Source: a virus. Taken from it: a DNA stretch of 27,462 bases. The stretch lies in the UHGV virus genome UHGV-1840938. One strand, written 5' to 3'. Below are positions 5,364 to 26,617 of this stretch, piece after piece. The notes below the pieces were generated by a model. The model had not been told where the DNA came from and ran no database searches. It was given only the letters and a program-made list of their open reading frames with translations. Position 1 is the stretch's first letter. The number at the start of each line of letters is the position of its first letter. Made by a program: the position numbers and the translations under genes.

Positions 5364-5609
5364 TCACCGGATTACCACATCCCACTCCGGCTCCTGCCAT
5401 CTCAAATCCGGTGAATCATTTCTCTCAGGAATAACCATTACGTTCCTTTCCATCCGCTCCCTTTCTATCGCCATCACAGCCAATGCTGCAACCATGATGT
5501 ATTTTTGCTCGTCGGTTCCTGTTTCATAGCGCCACATGAGGGTAAACTCGGGGCGATCAGTAACCTCAATGATTTCGTTAATTTCTTTAATTTCGCGAGG
5601 AATATCCAT
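5364..5609 (-). CDS. Hypothetical acidic small protein (uncertain)
   Basis: 81 aa from the ATG in the CCATGG at 5606..5611, which also supplies the plus-strand start of the next gene; no recognisable motifs. Confidence 0.25.
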   Translation of the reverse strand: MDIPREIKEINEIIEVTDRPEFTLMWRYETGTDEQKYIMVAALAVMAIERERMERNVMVIPERNDSPDLRWQEPEWDVVIR

Positions 5610-6282
5610 GGGTTTAGTCTCCTTTGACATTACATGCCCGCACTGTTTAAAAGAGCGAGCTGTTATTGAGGCATTTGCCGAAAAACAAATTGAAAAAACA
5701 CCTCTTTTTAACGTCGCTTTTGTATGCAGAAGTTGTCATCAAGGAGGTGTTGCTATTGTTGAAATCCCATCAGACCACTATCACGGCCCTATGGCGGAAA
5801 GCCAGAAAAAAGACCTTGATATTCTGATTTCAGGAAATAGCCAGTACCGTTTCCGCAAGATCTATCCTGCGGTCAAAAAAATTACCGCACCAGAATCTAC
5901 GCCCCCGGTTGCAGACCGTACTTTTGTTGAGGCAAAAGAGGATTTACAGAGGAGGCGGTACGACACAGTGGTTATTCTTTGTCGCAGAGTCCTCGATATC
6001 TCAACGAAAAAACTGCTCGGCGATGAAGCAGGAAAAGAATCTCTGTCGCAACGTATTCAGATGATTTACAAAAAAGGCCTGATCACTGAACAGATGAAGG
6101 AATGGGCTCATATTGTACGAATAGATGCCAATAAAGCAGTTCATACAGATGAAGTATTCACACCAATTGAGGCAAGCCAGATACTGAGTTTTACCGAAAT
6201 GTTTTTAGTCTACGCCTTCACTCTGCCTGCAATGGTGGAAGCCAGATGTGACCAAAAAAGATCAGATTCAGCCTCTATATGA
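5608..6282 (+). CDS. Zn-ribbon plus DUF4145-like domain protein (candidate defence/abortive-infection protein)
   Basis: N-terminal CPHC...CRSC zinc-ribbon; C-terminal HIVRIDANKAVHTDEVFTPIEASQILSFTEMFLVYAF resembles DUF4145; GAGGA RBS before ATG 5608. Confidence 0.7.
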   Translation: MGLVSFDITCPHCLKERAVIEAFAEKQIEKTPLFNVAFVCRSCHQGGVAIVEIPSDHYHGPMAESQKKDLDILISGNSQYRFRKIYPAVKKITAPESTPPVADRTFVEAKEDLQRRRYDTVVILCRRVLDISTKKLLGDEAGKESLSQRIQMIYKKGLITEQMKEWAHIVRIDANKAVHTDEVFTPIEASQILSFTEMFLVYAFTLPAMVEARCDQKRSDSASI

Positions 6283-18617: not shown

Positions 18618-20131
18618 AAATAATCCCAAACTTTGCTCAGGAGCGCGGTTTAAACCAGCTGCGGCACCAGTGGAAACAGCATCGCACGTACTTGATGTAC
18701 GCACCCACTGGCTCTGGCAAAACTGGTCTTGCAGCATTCGTCACCGCCGGAATGGTTGAACGTGGTATGCGGGTGATGTTTGTCTGTCCGTACACCATCC
18801 TGCTGAACCAGACAGCGGAACGTTTCACCGAATACGGTTTACCGTGGGAAGAAATCAGTTTTGTATGGCGTGATCACCCTAACTATGACCCGTCACGACT
18901 GATTCAGATTGCCAGTGCCGACACGCTGATCCGTCGTGAGTTTCCTGACAACATCGATCTGCTGATCATCGATGAAGCACACATGAAGCGTCGTGCGTTA
19001 CTTGAGGTTATCCGGGACAGAGACATCAGGGTTCTTGGACTTTCCGGCACCCCATTCGCAGCCTGGATGGGGAAGTACTACGAATGCCTGATCAAGCCTA
19101 CAACGATTCGTGAACTTATTCAGCGTGGTGATCTGAGCGATTACGAGTTTTTTGCCCCCTCAATGCCTGATCTGACTGGCGTAAAAACCAGTAACACCGT
19201 ATTTGGACGGGATTACAACGAGGAACAGCTCGCATCCATCATGGGGAGTTCGGATCTGGTTGGCGATATCGTTAGCAACTGGCTTGAGAATGGCGAGGAT
19301 TTACCGACGATCTGCTTCTGCGTGAACGTGGCTCATGCGAACTTTGTTACCCGTGAGTTTTTACAGTCTGGCATTGGCGCAGAGGTGATGACGGCAGATA
19401 CCCCCCATGATGAACGGCAGGATATCATTCGCCGTTTTGAAGATGGTGCGACCAAAATAATTGTCAACGTCGGCGTACTGGTTGCGGGATTTGACAGCGA
19501 TGTTCGCTGCCTGATCTACGCCCGTCCGACCAAATCAGAAATCCGCTGGTTGCAGTGCATCGGGAGAGCGTTACGTACTGCGTCTGGTAAAAAACGCGCA
19601 TTGATTTTCGACCATTCCGGTACGGTTCATCGGCTGGGCTTCCCCGAGGATATCGAGTATGACGAACTTCCGGGAAAAAATGACGGAATGAAAGCGTCTG
19701 CTGGCGGTGGCGAGGTTAAAGCTGAAAAACTTCCCAGAGAATGCCCCAAATGCCACTTCATGAAGCCTGCTGGTGTACACATGTGTCCCAAATGTGGATT
19801 TCGCCCACTTGGTGGTGATGACGTGGCGACAGATCGCGATCGTAAGCTTTCACGCGTCAACAAAGGGAAACGCGAATACACCCGTGAGGAAAAACAGCGT
19901 TGGTGGAGTGAGATCAAGGGTTATCAGAATTACCGCAACGCGACGGGTAAACCCCTGAGTGACGGATGGTGCGCTCATACCTACAAGGAGAAGTTCGGTG
20001 TGTGGCCTAAAGGCTTCAGTAATGCGCCGCTGCAAACCTCAGTTGAAGTGTACAACTTCATCAAGTCAAAGACCATTGCCTATGCCAAAGGGCGCAAGAA
20101 AGCCATGACAGGAGGCCAGCATGCAGACTAA
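18611..20131 (+). CDS. SF2 DEAD/DEAH-box-type helicase (phage replication helicase)
   Basis: Walker A YAPTGSGKT, DEAH-like IIDEAHM, later helicase motifs, C-terminal zinc-ribbon CPKCHF...CPKCG. Confidence 0.85.
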   Translation: MLKIIPNFAQERGLNQLRHQWKQHRTYLMYAPTGSGKTGLAAFVTAGMVERGMRVMFVCPYTILLNQTAERFTEYGLPWEEISFVWRDHPNYDPSRLIQIASADTLIRREFPDNIDLLIIDEAHMKRRALLEVIRDRDIRVLGLSGTPFAAWMGKYYECLIKPTTIRELIQRGDLSDYEFFAPSMPDLTGVKTSNTVFGRDYNEEQLASIMGSSDLVGDIVSNWLENGEDLPTICFCVNVAHANFVTREFLQSGIGAEVMTADTPHDERQDIIRRFEDGATKIIVNVGVLVAGFDSDVRCLIYARPTKSEIRWLQCIGRALRTASGKKRALIFDHSGTVHRLGFPEDIEYDELPGKNDGMKASAGGGEVKAEKLPRECPKCHFMKPAGVHMCPKCGFRPLGGDDVATDRDRKLSRVNKGKREYTREEKQRWWSEIKGYQNYRNATGKPLSDGWCAHTYKEKFGVWPKGFSNAPLQTSVEVYNFIKSKTIAYAKGRKKAMTGGQHAD

Positions 20132-22112: not shown

Positions 22113-22309
22113 CGTTCACCGTAAAAATCATTCCTGACATGCTTGTTGAGGCATATGGAAATCAGACCGAGGTGGCCCGAATACTGAACTGTAATCGTGC
22201 CACGGTCAGAAAATATATTGGCGATAAAGAAGGCAAACGGCACGCCGTCGTCAACGGTGTCCTTATGGTCCATCGTGGATGGGATAAGGGTAAAGACTCT
22301 GATGCGTGA
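22109..22309 (+). CDS. ninH: NinH-like protein
   Basis: [26 protein letters not shown]...VLMVHRGW closely resembles lambda NinH as recalled. Confidence 0.8.
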
Positions 22310-22727
22310 TATTCAGCAGGTGCTTGAACGCTGGGGCGCATGGGTGGCCAATAATCATGAGGATGTGAGCTGGTCGCCCATTGCCGCCGGATTTAAGGGG
22401 CTGATCCCGTCAAAGGTTAAATCACGGCCTCAGTGTACCGATGACGATGCGCTGATTATCAGCAATTGCATGGCGCAACTGAACGTCAACAACAGCGATT
22501 TGCATGATTTTCTGTATGATTATTATGTGTTCGGGATGACGCTTATGTCACTGGGCCGTAAGCATGGGCGCTCTGATTGCTGGGCCGGGCGGGTACTGCA
22601 AAAAGCAGAAGGTGTTATTGAGGGGATGTTGATCATGCAGGGAGTAAAGCTGGAAATGGACAGGTACGTTGAGCGTGAACCATCAGGATCACAGGCCAGT
22701 CAGTTTGCCGGACGTGCGGGAAATTGA
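22302..22727 (+). CDS. Q-family late antiterminator (QuuD-like); start at ATG 22302
   Basis: [45 protein letters not shown] closely resembles DLP12 QuuD-type Q proteins as recalled; overlaps ninH stop. Confidence 0.85.
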
Positions 22728-22751
22728 AAGCGCGAGTTTTTACTGTAGAAT
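22724..22751 (+). promoter_or_regulatory. Candidate late promoter (PR'-like) overlapping the Q stop
   Basis: TTGAAA at 22724..22729, 16-bp spacer, TAGAAT at 22746..22751. Confidence 0.4.
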
Positions 22752-22926
22752 AGCTGCGGGTGCTTGAGGCTGTCTGCCTCGGGCATGCAGCCGTAAGGCA
22801 GACAGAGAAAAGCCCCAGTTAACATTACGCGTCTTGCAGGACGCTTAACGTTAATCTGAGGCCAAATCTATGACTTACAAACTTAGGTTAGCCTCTTACG
22901 TGCCGAAAGGCAAGGAGAAGTAGGCT

Positions 22927-23082
22927 ATGAAGCAGCAAAAGGCGATGTTAATCGCCCTGATCGTCATCTGTATTACCGTCGTAGTGATAGCACTGGTAAC
23001 GAGGAAAGACTTCTGCGAGGTACGAATCCGAACCGGCCAGACGGAGGTCGCTGTCTTCGTAGACTACGAATCTGAGAAGTAA
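22927..23082 (+). CDS. Hok/Gef-family type I toxin (51 aa; absent from the ORF track)
   Basis: Translation MKQQKAMLIALIVICITVVVIALVTRKDFCEVRIRTGQTEVAVFVDYESEK has the transmembrane helix and the LTRK..CE.R...G..EVA.F..YES motif of Hok family; preceded by a 17-codon upstream ORF ending just before the ATG. Confidence 0.7.
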   Translation: MKQQKAMLIALIVICITVVVIALVTRKDFCEVRIRTGQTEVAVFVDYESEK

Positions 23083-23268
23083 GAGACCAGGCAGGGGAGT
23101 AATCTCCCGCCACCTCTGATGTGTCTGGCATCCTCAACGCACCCGTACTTTATTTGTCATATGCTCCGCAAAATGCAGGTTGTCGTTGCAACCAATGCGG
23201 TAATTTTTTGTGTGCGAGTGCTCAAAAAACGTTGATTTTCATAAAAGGATGATTTTATGCTGCCAGAC

Positions 23269-23317
23269 CAGCGACCAGCGACCAGCGACCAGCGACCAGC
23301 GACCAGCGACCAGCGAC
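23269..23317. repeat. Heptanucleotide tandem repeat (CAGCGAC)x7 between an ATG at 23257 and the large restriction-modification ORF
   Basis: Seven perfect copies counted directly; unit length 7 is not a multiple of 3. Confidence 0.95.
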
Positions 23318-23411
23318 CAGCAGTAAATCAAGAAAGTCTGTAAAATCTGTTGAGCCGGAAATTACCGAACTGGCGAACTCATGGCTTAAATCTTACAGGC
23401 TTGATTACAAG

Positions 23412-25373
23412 TTGCAGAATGCATCACTTAACGGAGAGATCGATAACGCACTGGACGCTTATTTTTCGAAAAATGGCGGCGCAGGCGGTAATCGTCCCGA
23501 CGTAAAACTCCTTGTTAAGGACAAATACGGCAAGCAGTATCCCGTTCTCATCGAGTATAAAGGCTACAAGGACAGGCTTATCAGACTTGGCAGCAACGGT
23601 ATTATTGAGAACAAAGATGCCAGAAAAGAATGGAATTTTAAAAATATTAATGGATACGCGGTGAATGGCGCAGTCCATTATGCCAACGCACTTCTTCAGT
23701 TCACCAATTACCCTGATATTATTGCTATTGGTATGACCGGCTGGCGCGATGATGGTACAGGCGAACTGCATCATGAAATCGGCGTGTGGTACGTATCAAA
23801 GAATAATTTAGGAGCCGGACAGAAGGTTGGTGAATTCACCGACTTATCGTTCCTTGCTGACAAAAATGTTGATGGATTTCTCAACAAGATAAAGCTGCTT
23901 AATCTTCCTCCCGAAGAACTGGAAAAAATCAAGGCCAGCAAAGAGGAAGAGATAGACACGCGACTTTCCCGTCTGAATAACGATATTTACCAGAATGAAA
24001 AGGGGCTTGGTGAAAGCGATCGTGTTTACCTTGTTGTGGCTACCGTTATTGCAACGTTGGGGATTCCGGGAAAGTTAGCACCGCTGGATAAAAAAGAACT
24101 GACCTCTTCAACGGAGGAGGACTTGCGTGATGGTGATATTATTTTCAGGAAAATAAGGAATTTTTTAAGGCTGAAAGCTGTTCCTGAAACAAAAAGAGAA
24201 ATGATTTTGCGCTCGTTGCAAAATACGCTGTGGACTGAAAACATTAACAAACCAGTCAACGGTGAAAGCCAGTTAAAGCGCGTGTTTGTTAAAGTTGTTG
24301 ATGATCTTGGGGAGTATTACAAAATTGGACTGACCACCGATTTTACGGGCAAACTGTTTAATGAGATGTATCGCTGGCTTGGATTTACGCAGGACAAGCT
24401 CAATGACGTCGTTCTGACACCACCTTATGTTGCCACATTGCTGGCACGACTCGCCAGAGTAAACAAAGATTCCTATGTGTGGGATTTTGCTACAGGTTCT
24501 GCGGGATTGCTTGTGGCTGCAATGAATGAAATGCTCATTGACGCCAGAGAAAATATTCACTCACCGAACGAACTACAACTTAAGGAAGCGCAAATCAAGG
24601 CTGAACAGCTTCTTGGCCTTGAGGTGTTATCCAGTATTTATATGCTGGCCATCCTGAATATGATTTTGATGGGGGATGGTAGCTCGAATATCCTCAATAA
24701 AGACTCGCTGGCCGATTTTGACGGCAAGTATGGATTTGGGAAAACAGGAGAAAAATTCCCTGCGGACGCATTTATTCTCAATCCTCCGTATTCAGCTAAA
24801 GGTAACGGCATGATTTTCGTGCAGAAGGCGCTGTCGATGATGGATAAAGGCTATGCTGCAGTGATTATCCAGAGTTCAGCTGGCACAGGAAAGGCTACGG
24901 AGTACAACAAAAAAATACTCAAGGAAAATACCTTGCTGGCAAGCATCAAAATGCCTGCGGATCTGTTTATTGGTAAATCAAGCGTTCAGACGTACATTTA
25001 CGTTTTTCAGGTAAAAATTCCGCATAACGCGAAACAGGCTGTTAAGTTTATCGACTTTTCCAATGACGGCTACGCTCGCTCTAATCGCAAAAAGGCAAGA
25101 AACAATCTTGTTGATGCCGATCGTGCAAAAGAGCGTTATCAGGAGGTTGTGGATCTGGTTCACTTCGGGAAAGGTTGCCTTAATATCTTTACGGAGGATG
25201 AATATTTTGAGGGAACAATCGATCCTGATAGTGGTGAGGACTGGAATCAGACCAGGCCAGTAGATGCTAGGCCAACGCTGGAGGATTTCAAAAAGACGGT
25301 AGGTGATTACCTTGCATGGGAGGTCTCGCAATTACTGAAAAAACAAGGTGAAAACAATTTTGCGGGAAAGTAA
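23412..25373 (+). CDS. Restriction-modification subunit: N-terminal PD-ExK-like region plus gamma-class N6-adenine methyltransferase (BcgI-A-like Type IIB/IIG candidate). The open frame extends upstream to 23253 through the repeat tract.
   Basis: Methyltransferase motif I VLTPPYVATLL...VWDFATGSAGLL and motif IV FILNPPYSAKG; N-terminal RPDVKLLVKDKYGKQYPVLIEYK fits a PD...ExK nuclease motif; the only start at the head of the ORF is a TTG with weak RBS, and the first in-frame ATG is far downstream. Confidence 0.85.
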   Translation: MQNASLNGEIDNALDAYFSKNGGAGGNRPDVKLLVKDKYGKQYPVLIEYKGYKDRLIRLGSNGIIENKDARKEWNFKNINGYAVNGAVHYANALLQFTNYPDIIAIGMTGWRDDGTGELHHEIGVWYVSKNNLGAGQKVGEFTDLSFLADKNVDGFLNKIKLLNLPPEELEKIKASKEEEIDTRLSRLNNDIYQNEKGLGESDRVYLVVATVIATLGIPGKLAPLDKKELTSSTEEDLRDGDIIFRKIRNFLRLKAVPETKREMILRSLQNTLWTENINKPVNGESQLKRVFVKVVDDLGEYYKIGLTTDFTGKLFNEMYRWLGFTQDKLNDVVLTPPYVATLLARLARVNKDSYVWDFATGSAGLLVAAMNEMLIDARENIHSPNELQLKEAQIKAEQLLGLEVLSSIYMLAILNMILMGDGSSNILNKDSLADFDGKYGFGKTGEKFPADAFILNPPYSAKGNGMIFVQKALSMMDKGYAAVIIQSSAGTGKATEYNKKILKENTLLASIKMPADLFIGKSSVQTYIYVFQVKIPHNAKQAVKFIDFSNDGYARSNRKKARNNLVDADRAKERYQEVVDLVHFGKGCLNIFTEDEYFEGTIDPDSGEDWNQTRPVDARPTLEDFKKTVGDYLAWEVSQLLKKQGENNFAGK

Positions 25374-25432
25374 ATTCCCCGCTCAGCGATAAATTAAGAA
25401 GCGTTGAGTGGGGAGAGTTCAGGATTGGCGAT

Positions 25433-26527
25433 TTGTTCTATGTGAGCACAGGCTCGCTTATCTCCTCAGGAAGATTAAAACCAGGCAAAATCAAACGTGT
25501 TTCAGCAAAGAGCGATCAAAACGGTATCATCGGAGAGTTTGATACCGAGTTTATGGATGATGCAAGACATTATGAAAATTTTATAAGCGTTAATTTTTTT
25601 GGAGATGCTTTTTATCATCCTTATTGTGCCAGCGTAGAAATGAAGGTGCATGTTCTTACATTAAAATCAAGTAAGTCCGACTTTAATGCAAAGCGCGGAC
25701 TGTATGTTGCCAGTATGATTAATAAAGCTTTAAAGGGGCGTTTTAATTATGGTCAACAGTTATCGAGTTCCAAACTCAGAGATGGAGAATATTTCATCTC
25801 ATTACCAGTGAAAAATAATGAAATTGACTGGTTTTTTATGGATAATTATATAGAAGAGCTGGAAGCGGCCCATATAGAAGAGCTGGAAGCATACCTGATA
25901 GCTGCTGGGCTGAGTGATTACCAACTAACGGAAAAAGATTATCTTATCCTGGAACATTTTAAAAATATTGAATTTTCAGGCTTTCCTGTTACTGAGTTAT
26001 TCTCAGTGTGCAATACAGGAAACATATTGTCTAGAGACATCATAGAAAATAGTGGGGATGTTCCTTATCTTTGTGCTAGCCGTGATAATAACTCTGTTAG
26101 TTCTTATATCGCCTATGATGACTCACTCTTGGAAAAAGGGAACTGTATTTTTATTGGTGGTAAGACATTCGTTGTAACTTATCAGGAGCGAGACTTTTTT
26201 TCAAACGACAGTCATAATTTGCGACTCTATGTTAACAATGAGGATGGAAGGACAAAGTTTGCTTATTTGGGCATTATTTCATGTATTTATAGGTCTATTT
26301 CACATAAATATTCATGGGGGGATAGTGTTAGTAATAGAAAAATTAAGAACGATGTTATTTGGTTGCCAGTGAAAAATAAGTCACCTGACTTTTGTTATAT
26401 AAATGACCTTATTTCAGTTGTTCATAAGCTTGTCATTAAAGATGTTGTCCAGTACGCAGAACGCAAAATGAACGCATACAGGCAAGCTATAACAAGTCGC
26501 GGTTATGATGATTCTGGTGTCAGTTAA
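25433..26527 (+). CDS. Specificity (S) subunit with two target-recognition domains (HsdS/BcgI-B-like)
   Basis: Two repeated TRD-leading motifs (RIGDLFYVSTGSLISSG... and PVTELFSVCNTGNILSR...), central IEELEA repeats; TTG start with AGGA RBS; very AT-rich. Confidence 0.8.
   Translation: MFYVSTGSLISSGRLKPGKIKRVSAKSDQNGIIGEFDTEFMDDARHYENFISVNFFGDAFYHPYCASVEMKVHVLTLKSSKSDFNAKRGLYVASMINKALKGRFNYGQQLSSSKLRDGEYFISLPVKNNEIDWFFMDNYIEELEAAHIEELEAYLIAAGLSDYQLTEKDYLILEHFKNIEFSGFPVTELFSVCNTGNILSRDIIENSGDVPYLCASRDNNSVSSYIAYDDSLLEKGNCIFIGGKTFVVTYQERDFFSNDSHNLRLYVNNEDGRTKFAYLGIISCIYRSISHKYSWGDSVSNRKIKNDVIWLPVKNKSPDFCYINDLISVVHKLVIKDVVQYAERKMNAYRQAITSRGYDDSGVS
25850..25897. repeat. 24-bp tandem duplication in the central spacer region of the S subunit (encodes IEELEAAH / IEELEAYL)
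   Basis: ATAGAAGAGCTGGAAGC appears twice at a 24-bp period (25850 and 25874). Confidence 0.9.
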
Positions 26528-26595
26528 AAAACATTTTACAATCGTAAAAATCCTCATATCATGATAAGAATGGTTACATTGCCACGCAGCCGAAT

Positions 26596-26617
26596 CCGCC
26601 GATGAGCGGGCTTTTTT
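26596..26617 (+). terminator. Candidate intrinsic terminator downstream of the S gene
   Basis: Stem CCGC/GCGG (loop CGATGA) followed by CTTTTTTG. Confidence 0.45.

Follow-up and report, generated by a model that had tools for sequence, protein, structure and literature searches.

What kind of restriction-modification (R-M) system lies at positions 23412 to 26527 of the UHGV virus genome UHGV-1840938, and how are its two parts translated? The whole stretch that we analyse, 27,462 nucleotides (nt) long and called the window below, corresponds to the left-hand and central portions of a 933W-like lambdoid prophage. The first-pass annotation described the locus as a two-gene, BcgI-like R-M candidate, and the two open reading frames (ORFs) that it named are present as first described:

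23412-25373, + strand: ORF of 653 amino acids (aa) from a TTG codon, called RM below
25433-26527, + strand: ORF of 364 aa from a TTG codon, called S below

Both starts, however, are wrong, the first being an internal Leu codon and the second lying in a frame that is open from inside the RM stop codon. What stands of the two-gene description is the presence of the two frames; S has no start codon and is probably joined to RM by a -1 frameshift cassette. Judged from its sequence, the locus quite probably combines a Type IIB cargo module, a repeat that switches the frame of RM, and an RM~S fusion made by frameshifting.

The 5' end of RM and the heptanucleotide array

We begin by considering where RM starts. 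The PADLOC alignment of the 653-aa ORF begins at profile position 36, which hints at a truncated N-terminus, and the RM frame is open upstream back to 23253. Adding the upstream codons raises the PADLOC score from 756.7 to 770.8 bits, and the match now runs from profile position 15. The homologues of 677 to 686 aa (Neisseria, Providencia, Methylophilaceae) span the same N-terminal segment, and TTG 23412 is the internal Leu of a conserved LDYKLEQ motif, without a good Shine-Dalgarno sequence (SD). By these alignments, the TTG start is an artefact of ORF calling, and at the 5' end RM extends about 30 conserved codons further. The elements that precede the called ORF are the following:

23246-23259, + strand: translation start region, with the SD AGGA at 23246-49, ATG-1 at 23249-51 and ATG-2 at 23257-59
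23266-23321, + strand: perfect heptanucleotide array (GACCAGC)x8, 6 nt past ATG 23257
23322-23411, + strand: conserved N-terminal RM coding segment (..KSVKSVEPEITELANSWLKSYRLDYK), missing from the 653-aa ORF call

The two ATGs are in different frames. ATG-2 lies 7 nt past the SD, while ATG-1, which overlaps it, is left without a usable SD. This start region is kept in all E. coli alleles, including one that is 85% identical. A 17-nt direct repeat (TCAAAAAACGTTGATTT / TCATAAAAGGATGATTT, 23222-23256), also conserved in all alleles, overlaps the SD and ATG-1 and ends 1 base before ATG 23257; it could be the binding site of a regulator.

The next question is what the array does to the reading frame. 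(GACCAGC)n encodes (PATSDQR)n in each of the three frames, and because the unit is 7 nt long, each unit gained or lost shifts the frame of RM. When n = 0 mod 3 the SD-served ATG 23257 is in frame with RM, when n = 1 mod 3 ATG 23249 alone is in frame, and when n = 2 mod 3 neither is. The window, with n = 8, belongs to the last of these states, and its ATG ORF stops after 28 codons. An array of a 7-nt unit, 100% perfect and placed between the start codon and the body of the gene, is what a contingency locus would present.

Does the copy number vary among close strains? In complete E. coli genomes n runs from 16 to 99. The near-identical strains G1/2, G6/7 and G8 have about 91, 83 and 99 copies, the pair UCPROB-001 and UCPROB-002 has 76 and 83, and three O111:H8 isolates have 56, 83 and 58. 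The 83 copies in G6/7 and in the phage PhiR12_3 are perfect and stand in a locus otherwise identical to that of the window. Among 20 complete genomes with the window-type allele, 4 are ON (ATG 23257 in frame), 7 have ATG-1 in frame and 9 have neither. Strains 09-00049 and G8 are examples of the ON state, and G6/7 is one of the OFF state. Both variation among close strains and occupation of all the frames are seen, as in contingency loci, with assembly errors a possible contributor. Public protein records include in-frame forms that begin MLPDQRPATS, and RefSeq gives one allele as a 739-aa protein across the array.

To place the array in a wider setting, we use a scan of one genome per species, in which relatives turn up in at least 504 species. 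The 80 best loci, 69-73% identical, span Firmicutes, Bacteroidota, Proteobacteria, Campylobacterota, Spirochaetes, candidate phyla radiation (CPR) bacteria and others. The array is absent from the Neisseria gene, and no comparable repeat is found in these 80 loci of other species; it is therefore an innovation of enterobacterial prophages. Literature searches for the repeat sequence return no report, and the locus names used in MLVA (multilocus analysis of tandem repeats whose number varies) are uninformative on the array.

Antisense to the array, RefSeq places a 'YXWGXW repeat-containing protein' or a 'hypothetical protein' (positions 19415-20032 on the - strand of locus L001, equivalent to 23266-23321 of the window). 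We reject it as a real gene; its length tracks that of the array, and the call is probably spurious.

Several observations weigh against a working switch. Some long-read assemblies contain 6-nt variant units, possibly sequencing errors, and 8 of 17 IMG/VR contigs break within the array. No complete genome has fewer than 16 copies, and the 56-nt array of the window is about the size of a common de Bruijn k-mer. A longer array may thus have collapsed in short-read assembly to the n = 8 of the window, whose OFF state is therefore uncertain. Arrays of 50-99 copies also far exceed the classical contingency tracts in length.

The alternative that survives best takes this unusual length as a sign of a neutral variable-number tandem repeat (VNTR) in a 5' leader, with translation of RM beginning further downstream, at TTG 23412 or a similar codon, at any n. 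It agrees with the 653-aa TTG product that RefSeq has in all genomes, and with the majority of genomes being in the OFF or ATG-1 frame. It has to place initiation at an internal Leu, poorly served by any SD, in a segment conserved among the longer homologues, and it is opposed both by the SD-served ATG that is kept 6 nt upstream of the array in all alleles and by the in-frame protein forms given above. We consider a neutral repeat unlikely, if a competitor to be taken seriously. That the array functions as a slipped-strand phase-variation switch is, from its position, unit and variation, the likely reading.

The junction between RM and S

We turn our attention to the 3' end of RM and ask how the translation of S begins. 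The junction contains:

25364-25373, + strand: slippery heptamer G GGA AAG (25364-70), then the RM stop TAA (25371-73)
25370-26527, + strand: reading frame of S, in the -1 register of RM and 385 codons long when counted from the shift site
25376-25414, + strand: stem-loop 5 nt 3' of the heptamer, with 13 bp (25376-88 with 25402-14) and a 13-nt loop

RM ends in ...GCG GGA AAG TAA, and the -1 frame is open across this stop, reading K-VNSPLSDKLRSVEWGEF... and on to the S stop. No ATG, GTG or TTG occurs in the S frame ahead of its conserved N-terminal motif (VEWGEFRIGDLF), and a start at TTG 25433 or GTG 25442, as called, would remove part of the motif. Read against this motif, the called S start is an artefact of ORF calling.

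Is this arrangement kept in the family? The set of junctions that we compare holds 84 loci, including the 80 from the species scan. In every one of the 84, the stop of RM is preceded at a distance of 0 or 1 codon by an X XXY YYZ heptamer in frame, and all of the types are slippery: GGGAAAA (47 loci), GGGAAAG (30), AAAAAAA (4) and AAAAAAG (3). The residue that precedes Gly varies (L, S, E, A or V), with the third base of its codon always G, and Gly itself is written GGA without exception; elsewhere in the gene GGA accounts for 28% of Gly codons, and a final G is seen in 16% of codons. The heptamer is conserved beyond codon usage, as a frameshift site would be. Both G_GGA_AAG and A_AAA_AAG rank with the heptamers most prone to shifting in E. 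coli (PMC5009743). Transcriptional slippage is rejected as the route to S, since only the A7 variants could use it and GGGAAAR could not.

The frame beyond the heptamer is long (median 372 codons) and without an initiation signal of its own. Its first codon is GTA, ATA or ATG, fixed solely by the Lys and stop codons of RM, and in 46 of the 84 loci there is no canonical start before the conserved Trp.

The stem-loop gives a further set of evidence. In the window it has a folding free energy of -23.3 kcal/mol and a z-score of -5.6; across loci it stands 5-7 nt past the heptamer, with a mean folding z-score of -4.1 (82 loci). In an ungapped alignment of 77 sequences, 92.7% of the stem cells are paired, versus 33-47% when the partner columns are slid. 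Compensatory cells number 50 versus 7.5 +/- 4.3 in shuffles, and none of 500 shuffles reaches 50. Six stem pairs vary on both sides, and one alternates between U-A, C-G and U-G, tying a synonymous Leu position to the choice of Lys or Glu in S. The junction has, in short, a 3' structure within the 5-9 nt expected of a frameshift stimulator, with support from covariation. The enterobacterial A AAA AAG alleles have a different hairpin in the same place.

The competing explanation is that RM and S are separate subunits, S being initiated by termination-reinitiation at the overlapping codon or at a nearby non-canonical or internal start, with the heptamer and hairpin serving another role, for example in mRNA stability. 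Some of the loci do speak for it and against frameshifting. The first S-frame codon is an ATG, overlapping TGA, in 7 of the 84, an ATG or TTG stands at S-frame codon 7-8 in 25, and independent initiation of S is possible in some of the lineages that have such a nearby codon. NCBI calls ATT, GTG or TTG starts for S, and BcgI and BsaXI are two-chain enzymes (PMC3592470, PMC11997821). In the other 77 of the 84 loci, however, the overlapping codon is GTA or ATA, both very poor initiators. Coupling leaves the invariant NNG GGA AAR at synonymous positions unexplained, as it does the replacement of the heptamer only by other X XXY YYZ heptamers, and a 5- to 7-nt spacer followed by a stem-loop is the classic layout of a frameshift site. 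Separate initiation of S is rather improbable on this evidence. Production of S as an RM~S fusion through a programmed -1 frameshift is the reading that the sequences strongly favour.

Are there relatives in which the two frames are already one? Among the more distant relatives we find hard-wired in-frame RM~S fusions with two target recognition domains (TRDs), of 983, 1046 and 1098 aa, and in-frame fusions of RM with half of S, of 799 and 884 aa. The identity of the fusion relatives (P0242, P0269, P0271, P0246 and P0251) is 43-71%. As far as sequence comparison can tell, the family has passed between three architectures, split, frameshift-linked and fused. Recoding in R-M systems is not mentioned in a comprehensive recoding review, in the main text of the GeneTack survey or in the results of targeted searches, which is not a proof of novelty.

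The S module

The first-pass annotation saw two TRDs in the 364-aa protein, and this is borne out. Pfam Methylase_S matches two stretches of S (1e-19), PADLOC assigns it to Specificity_II (9e-21), and a second Type II specificity subunit model matches at 8e-16. The alignment gives the layout as a linker (VNSPLSDKLRSV), TRD1, a central coiled-coil region, TRD2 and a C-terminal conserved region, that is, the two-TRD specificity module of a Type IIB enzyme. Repeats are found in S as well:

25850-25901, + strand: 24-nt tandem repeat, 2.2 copies, encoding IEELEAAH (8 aa) in the central conserved coiled-coil region of S
L009 7892-7930, L010 8413-8547 and L011 7964-8114: (GCGGACTC)n tracts of a related E. 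coli allele

IEELEAAH is present in 1, 2, 3 or 4 copies among E. coli S variants with identical TRDs. By analogy, such changes could alter the spacer of the recognition site; EcoR124I/II is the model for a spacer change through a central repeat of S. In the related allele, the perfect (GCGGACTC)n tract lies between the TRDs with n of about 5, 17 and 19, and S comes out whole (429 aa) or split. A repeat between the TRDs of S is the layout of known phase-variable hsdS genes. In a homologue from a Bacteroidaceae metagenome-assembled genome (L060 5652-5661), a poly-G(10) tract lies in the S frame, which ends at 209 codons; this tract may be an independent repeat switch.

Could the copy in the window be an inactive remnant, frame-shifted at its 5' end and no longer under selection? 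It is out of frame with both ATGs, and related alleles have a split S. Set against this, RM and S keep intact frames with identities of at least 99% across 20 genomes, the frameshift cassette is intact, and the out-of-frame state is reversible by a single repeat unit. A remnant is improbable.

The class of the enzyme

What class of R-M enzyme do these frames encode? The body of RM is read as follows:

23412-25373, + strand: body of the RM (A) subunit, with PD-(D/E)xK nuclease, helical connector and gamma-class N6-adenine methyltransferase (MTase)

An N-terminal PD...ExK motif and the gamma-class motifs I and IV had been proposed for this protein, and they are all found. The nuclease motif is PD(29-30)...E48-Y-K50 (PD-x17-ExK) at nt 23496-23564, with D at 23499 and E-x-K at 23553-61. 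The MTase motifs follow in the gamma-class order, X (TPPY) at 24417, I (DFATGSAG) at 24483-24506 and IV (NPPY) at 24780-24791. The alignment of 46 homologues shows no variation in D, E, K, motif I or NPPY. Endonuclease and methyltransferase motifs in a single ORF are characteristic of Type IIB. In BcgI, of composition A2B, Glu53 of the PD..EXK motif is needed for cleavage (PMC3592470), and the composition of BsaXI is (RM)2S (PMC11997821).

The profile searches agree with the earlier preference for Type IIB/IIG over Type I. PADLOC, the defence-system predictor, matches both proteins to Type II models, RM over its full length to REase_MTase_IIG (E = 6e-228) and to two further models of this kind. 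Pfam N6_Mtase matches the RM ORF at 4e-21, and a VRR_NUC match falls under its cut-off. Against the NCBI hsdM equivalog TIGR00497, RM scores 36.3 bits where the cut-off is 242.75.

A sequence search of the PDB, with the single RM protein or with a profile of 46 sequences, gives no match up to E = 1. A point on the other side is that the AlphaFold2 model of RM is poor, with a mean predicted local distance difference test (pLDDT) score of 61.7 from a shallow alignment (>=72% identity). Foldseek matches of this low-confidence model are HsdM proteins at the top, BsaXI (Type IIB), and BpuSI and DrdV (Type IIG); we use them as weak support, consistent with Type IIB. The order of strands and helices in the modeled N-terminus fits PD-(D/E)xK, short of proof.

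A separate HsdR was reported missing, and we find none in the window, none in the remaining prophage (judged from G6/7 and PhiR12_3) and none beside the Neisseria and Salmonella homologues. RM+S pairs without hsdR lie between housekeeping genes in Neisseria flavescens and beside genes of a conjugative element in Salmonella. The only helicase-like ORF within the window is a 506-aa superfamily 2 (SF2) helicase (ResIII/Helicase_C), rejected as HsdR because it is not long enough and belongs to the replication module, where it adjoins the primase. A regular Type I M+S pair with its HsdR elsewhere, as the RefSeq names 'HsdM family' and 'subunit S' and the top Foldseek matches would have it, is barely credible given an N-terminal PD..ExK domain not found in HsdM, the score far below the hsdM cut-off beside full-length matches to IIG/IIB models, and the absence of HsdR just described. 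From motifs and profiles, the locus is very probably a BcgI-like Type IIB R-M system, a chain with nuclease and gamma-class N6-adenine MTase plus a two-TRD S.

A model for expression and assembly

Combining the information on RM, the array, the junction and S, we propose the following model. The R-M module would be cargo in the late region of the prophage, just 3' of Q, pR' and hok/sok. Translation from ATG 23257 would have to cross the (GACCAGC)n array, so that n = 0 mod 3 is predicted to be ON, n = 1 mod 3 probably weak and n = 2 mod 3 OFF. Slipped-strand changes of n would then give a heritable and reversible phase variation. At G GGA AAG and the following TAA, part of the ribosomes would terminate and release free RM; the others, stimulated by the stem-loop, would slip by -1 and read on into S, to give an RM~S of about 1068 aa.

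How would these two products assemble? The two-TRD S module would read a bipartite site, and one free RM and one RM~S on it would amount to 2RM:1S. By analogy with BcgI and BsaXI, the (RM)2S unit is expected to methylate hemimethylated sites and to excise unmodified ones without ATP. The question of self-targeting, raised for a restriction enzyme in this position, is a reasonable one; it bears mostly on switching from OFF to ON on an unmethylated chromosome.

For the whole family the claim is broader: a large Type IIB family, spread by horizontal transfer and with relatives in at least 504 species-level genomes, would make S only as a frameshift extension, with recoding setting 2RM:1S, and the E. 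coli/Stx prophages would add a three-state heptanucleotide switch (in one allele also a second, 8-nt switch in S). We lean slightly toward this generalization.

What would follow if the model is true? R-M would join the short list of cellular systems that fix subunit ratios by programmed frameshifting, the interconversion of fused and unfused Type IIB architectures would be explained, and the 'RM + S' and single-chain 'RMS' classes would be bridged. Annotation of the family would be systematically wrong, with a truncated RM, ad hoc starts for S and a spurious antisense 'YXWGXW' protein. E. coli, including Stx2b phages and O111:H8 enterohaemorrhagic E. coli (EHEC), would gain an on/off R-M system borne by prophages, with effects on phage resistance, gene flow and heterogeneity of the methylome. 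It would be a phage-borne, phase-variable module of defence and epigenetic control in a species thought to be without repeat-based contingency loci. The hypervariable array could also serve for strain typing. The interest of the locus is that a hypervariable repeat switch and a frameshift cassette shared by the whole family occur in it together.

Prophage context and distribution

The genes of the window are, in order, the integrase, an MT-A70 methylase, recombination genes, cI/cro, helicase-primase, NinG and Q. The R-M locus is flanked by Q upstream and by a SASA/NanS-p esterase downstream. Its description as AT-rich is correct, the GC content being 0.44 in the RM gene and 0.36 in S versus about 0.50 in Q/NinG. 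The features around it are:

22197-22727: antiterminator Q (PF06530, 1e-47)
22724-22751, + strand: pR'-like sigma-70 promoter TTGAAA-16-TAGAAT at the end of Q, 10/12 match
22758-23082: type I toxin-antitoxin cassette of the hok/sok kind (Hok/Gef ORF at 22927-23082; Rfam sok match, 1.2e-27)
26595-26620, + strand: terminator-like hairpin and T-run, 68 nt past the S stop, from a consensus scan only

The promoter at 22724-22751 is the sole strong promoter-like site upstream of the module, and from its position after Q we infer that it is pR'. On the + strand, no intrinsic terminator is predicted from this promoter to the RM gene. The hok/sok cassette is directly 3' of the promoter, so that a late transcript meets hok before the R-M genes. 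The scan for promoters and terminators gives no pattern that decides between expression in the lysogen and Q-dependent expression.

Between S and the esterase, a full-length match to the small RNA family STnc100 (26714-26930, 149 bits, E = 3e-34) has a terminator-like hairpin of its own. Other accessory genes of the prophage, at 14461-16255, 2356-2982 and 5536-6282, are a HicA/HicB pair, an SDH-type ClpP-like protease that adjoins cI, an MT-A70 adenine methyltransferase and a DUF4145 protein. Sister prophages have a BsuBI/PstI-type R-M system, or the remnant of one, beside cI.

How widespread is the module? Its 3.3 kb are found in 30 of 5426 complete E. coli genomes, chromosomal every time, and in one deposited phage, PhiR12_3 from ECOR13. 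Among the carriers are O111:H8 strains, the atypical enteropathogenic E. coli (aEPEC) E110019 and the Symbioflor strains G1/2, G6/7 and G8. A 93%-similar allele is present in the Stx2b phage of strain 04-00955, where the order is Q, hok, RM, S, tRNA Ile/Arg/Arg and stxA2b/stxB2b (L009 9034-10460). The first-pass annotation placed the locus in the slot that stx occupies. It does lie between Q and the NanS-p esterase, but it is no alternative to stx: because 04-00955 has both, with RM-S 5' of stxA2b/stxB2b, the module sits upstream of the stx position and does not substitute for it.

Comparison with known systems

We close by comparing the locus with systems of known design. BcgI (the A2B archetype) and BsaXI ((RM)2S, PDB 8W0P) resemble it in having PD..ExK and a gamma-class N6-adenine MTase on one chain, no ATPase and a two-TRD S, and the 2RM:1S composition is expected here too. 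They differ in that S here has no start codon of its own, a -1 frameshift cassette probably connecting it with RM, and in the repeat switch at the 5' end of RM. No sequence match to solved chains is detectable.

The RM+S homologues of Neisseria, 72% identical, belong to the same family and share the two-frame layout, the G GGA AAG with its stop and the hairpin; they differ in being chromosomal, in having no heptamer array and in an ATG that stands 7 codons inside the S frame. Neisseria has a characterised BcgI-like enzyme, NgoAVIII, which may or may not be this homologue. The single-chain Type IIB RMS enzymes of the AloI, CjeI and TstI group have the same order of domains as the predicted RM~S. 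Their fusion is hard-wired, whereas here it would be conditional on recoding and free RM would also be made, supplying the second RM that hard-wired fusions lack.

Phase-variable R-M genes with simple sequence repeats (SSRs), such as Type III mod, Type I hsdM with 5' tracts and the Type IIG cj0031 of C. jejuni, have like the present locus a 5' tract on the methyltransferase gene, whose copy number sets the frame and varies between strains. What sets the present locus apart is its 7-nt unit, its up to 99 copies, its place on a prophage and its host, E. coli, a species that to our knowledge is not noted for SSR contingency loci. The layout also recalls lic1 of H. influenzae, where ATGs in different frames give three states.

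For the junction, the closest parallels are dnaX (tau/gamma) and phage lambda G/GT, which have the same heptamers (A AAA AAG and G GGA AAG) followed by a 3' stem-loop, and which make two products in a set ratio from one mRNA, as we propose here (PMC5009743). The present case differs in the gene family, in a 0-frame stop that abuts the heptamer and in an extension that is a whole specificity subunit. Lastly, an engineered fusion of the M and S subunits of EcoKI is active once extra M is supplied (PMC3510504). The stoichiometric logic is the same; in EcoKI the fusion was made by mutagenesis, while here we propose that it is made by natural recoding.

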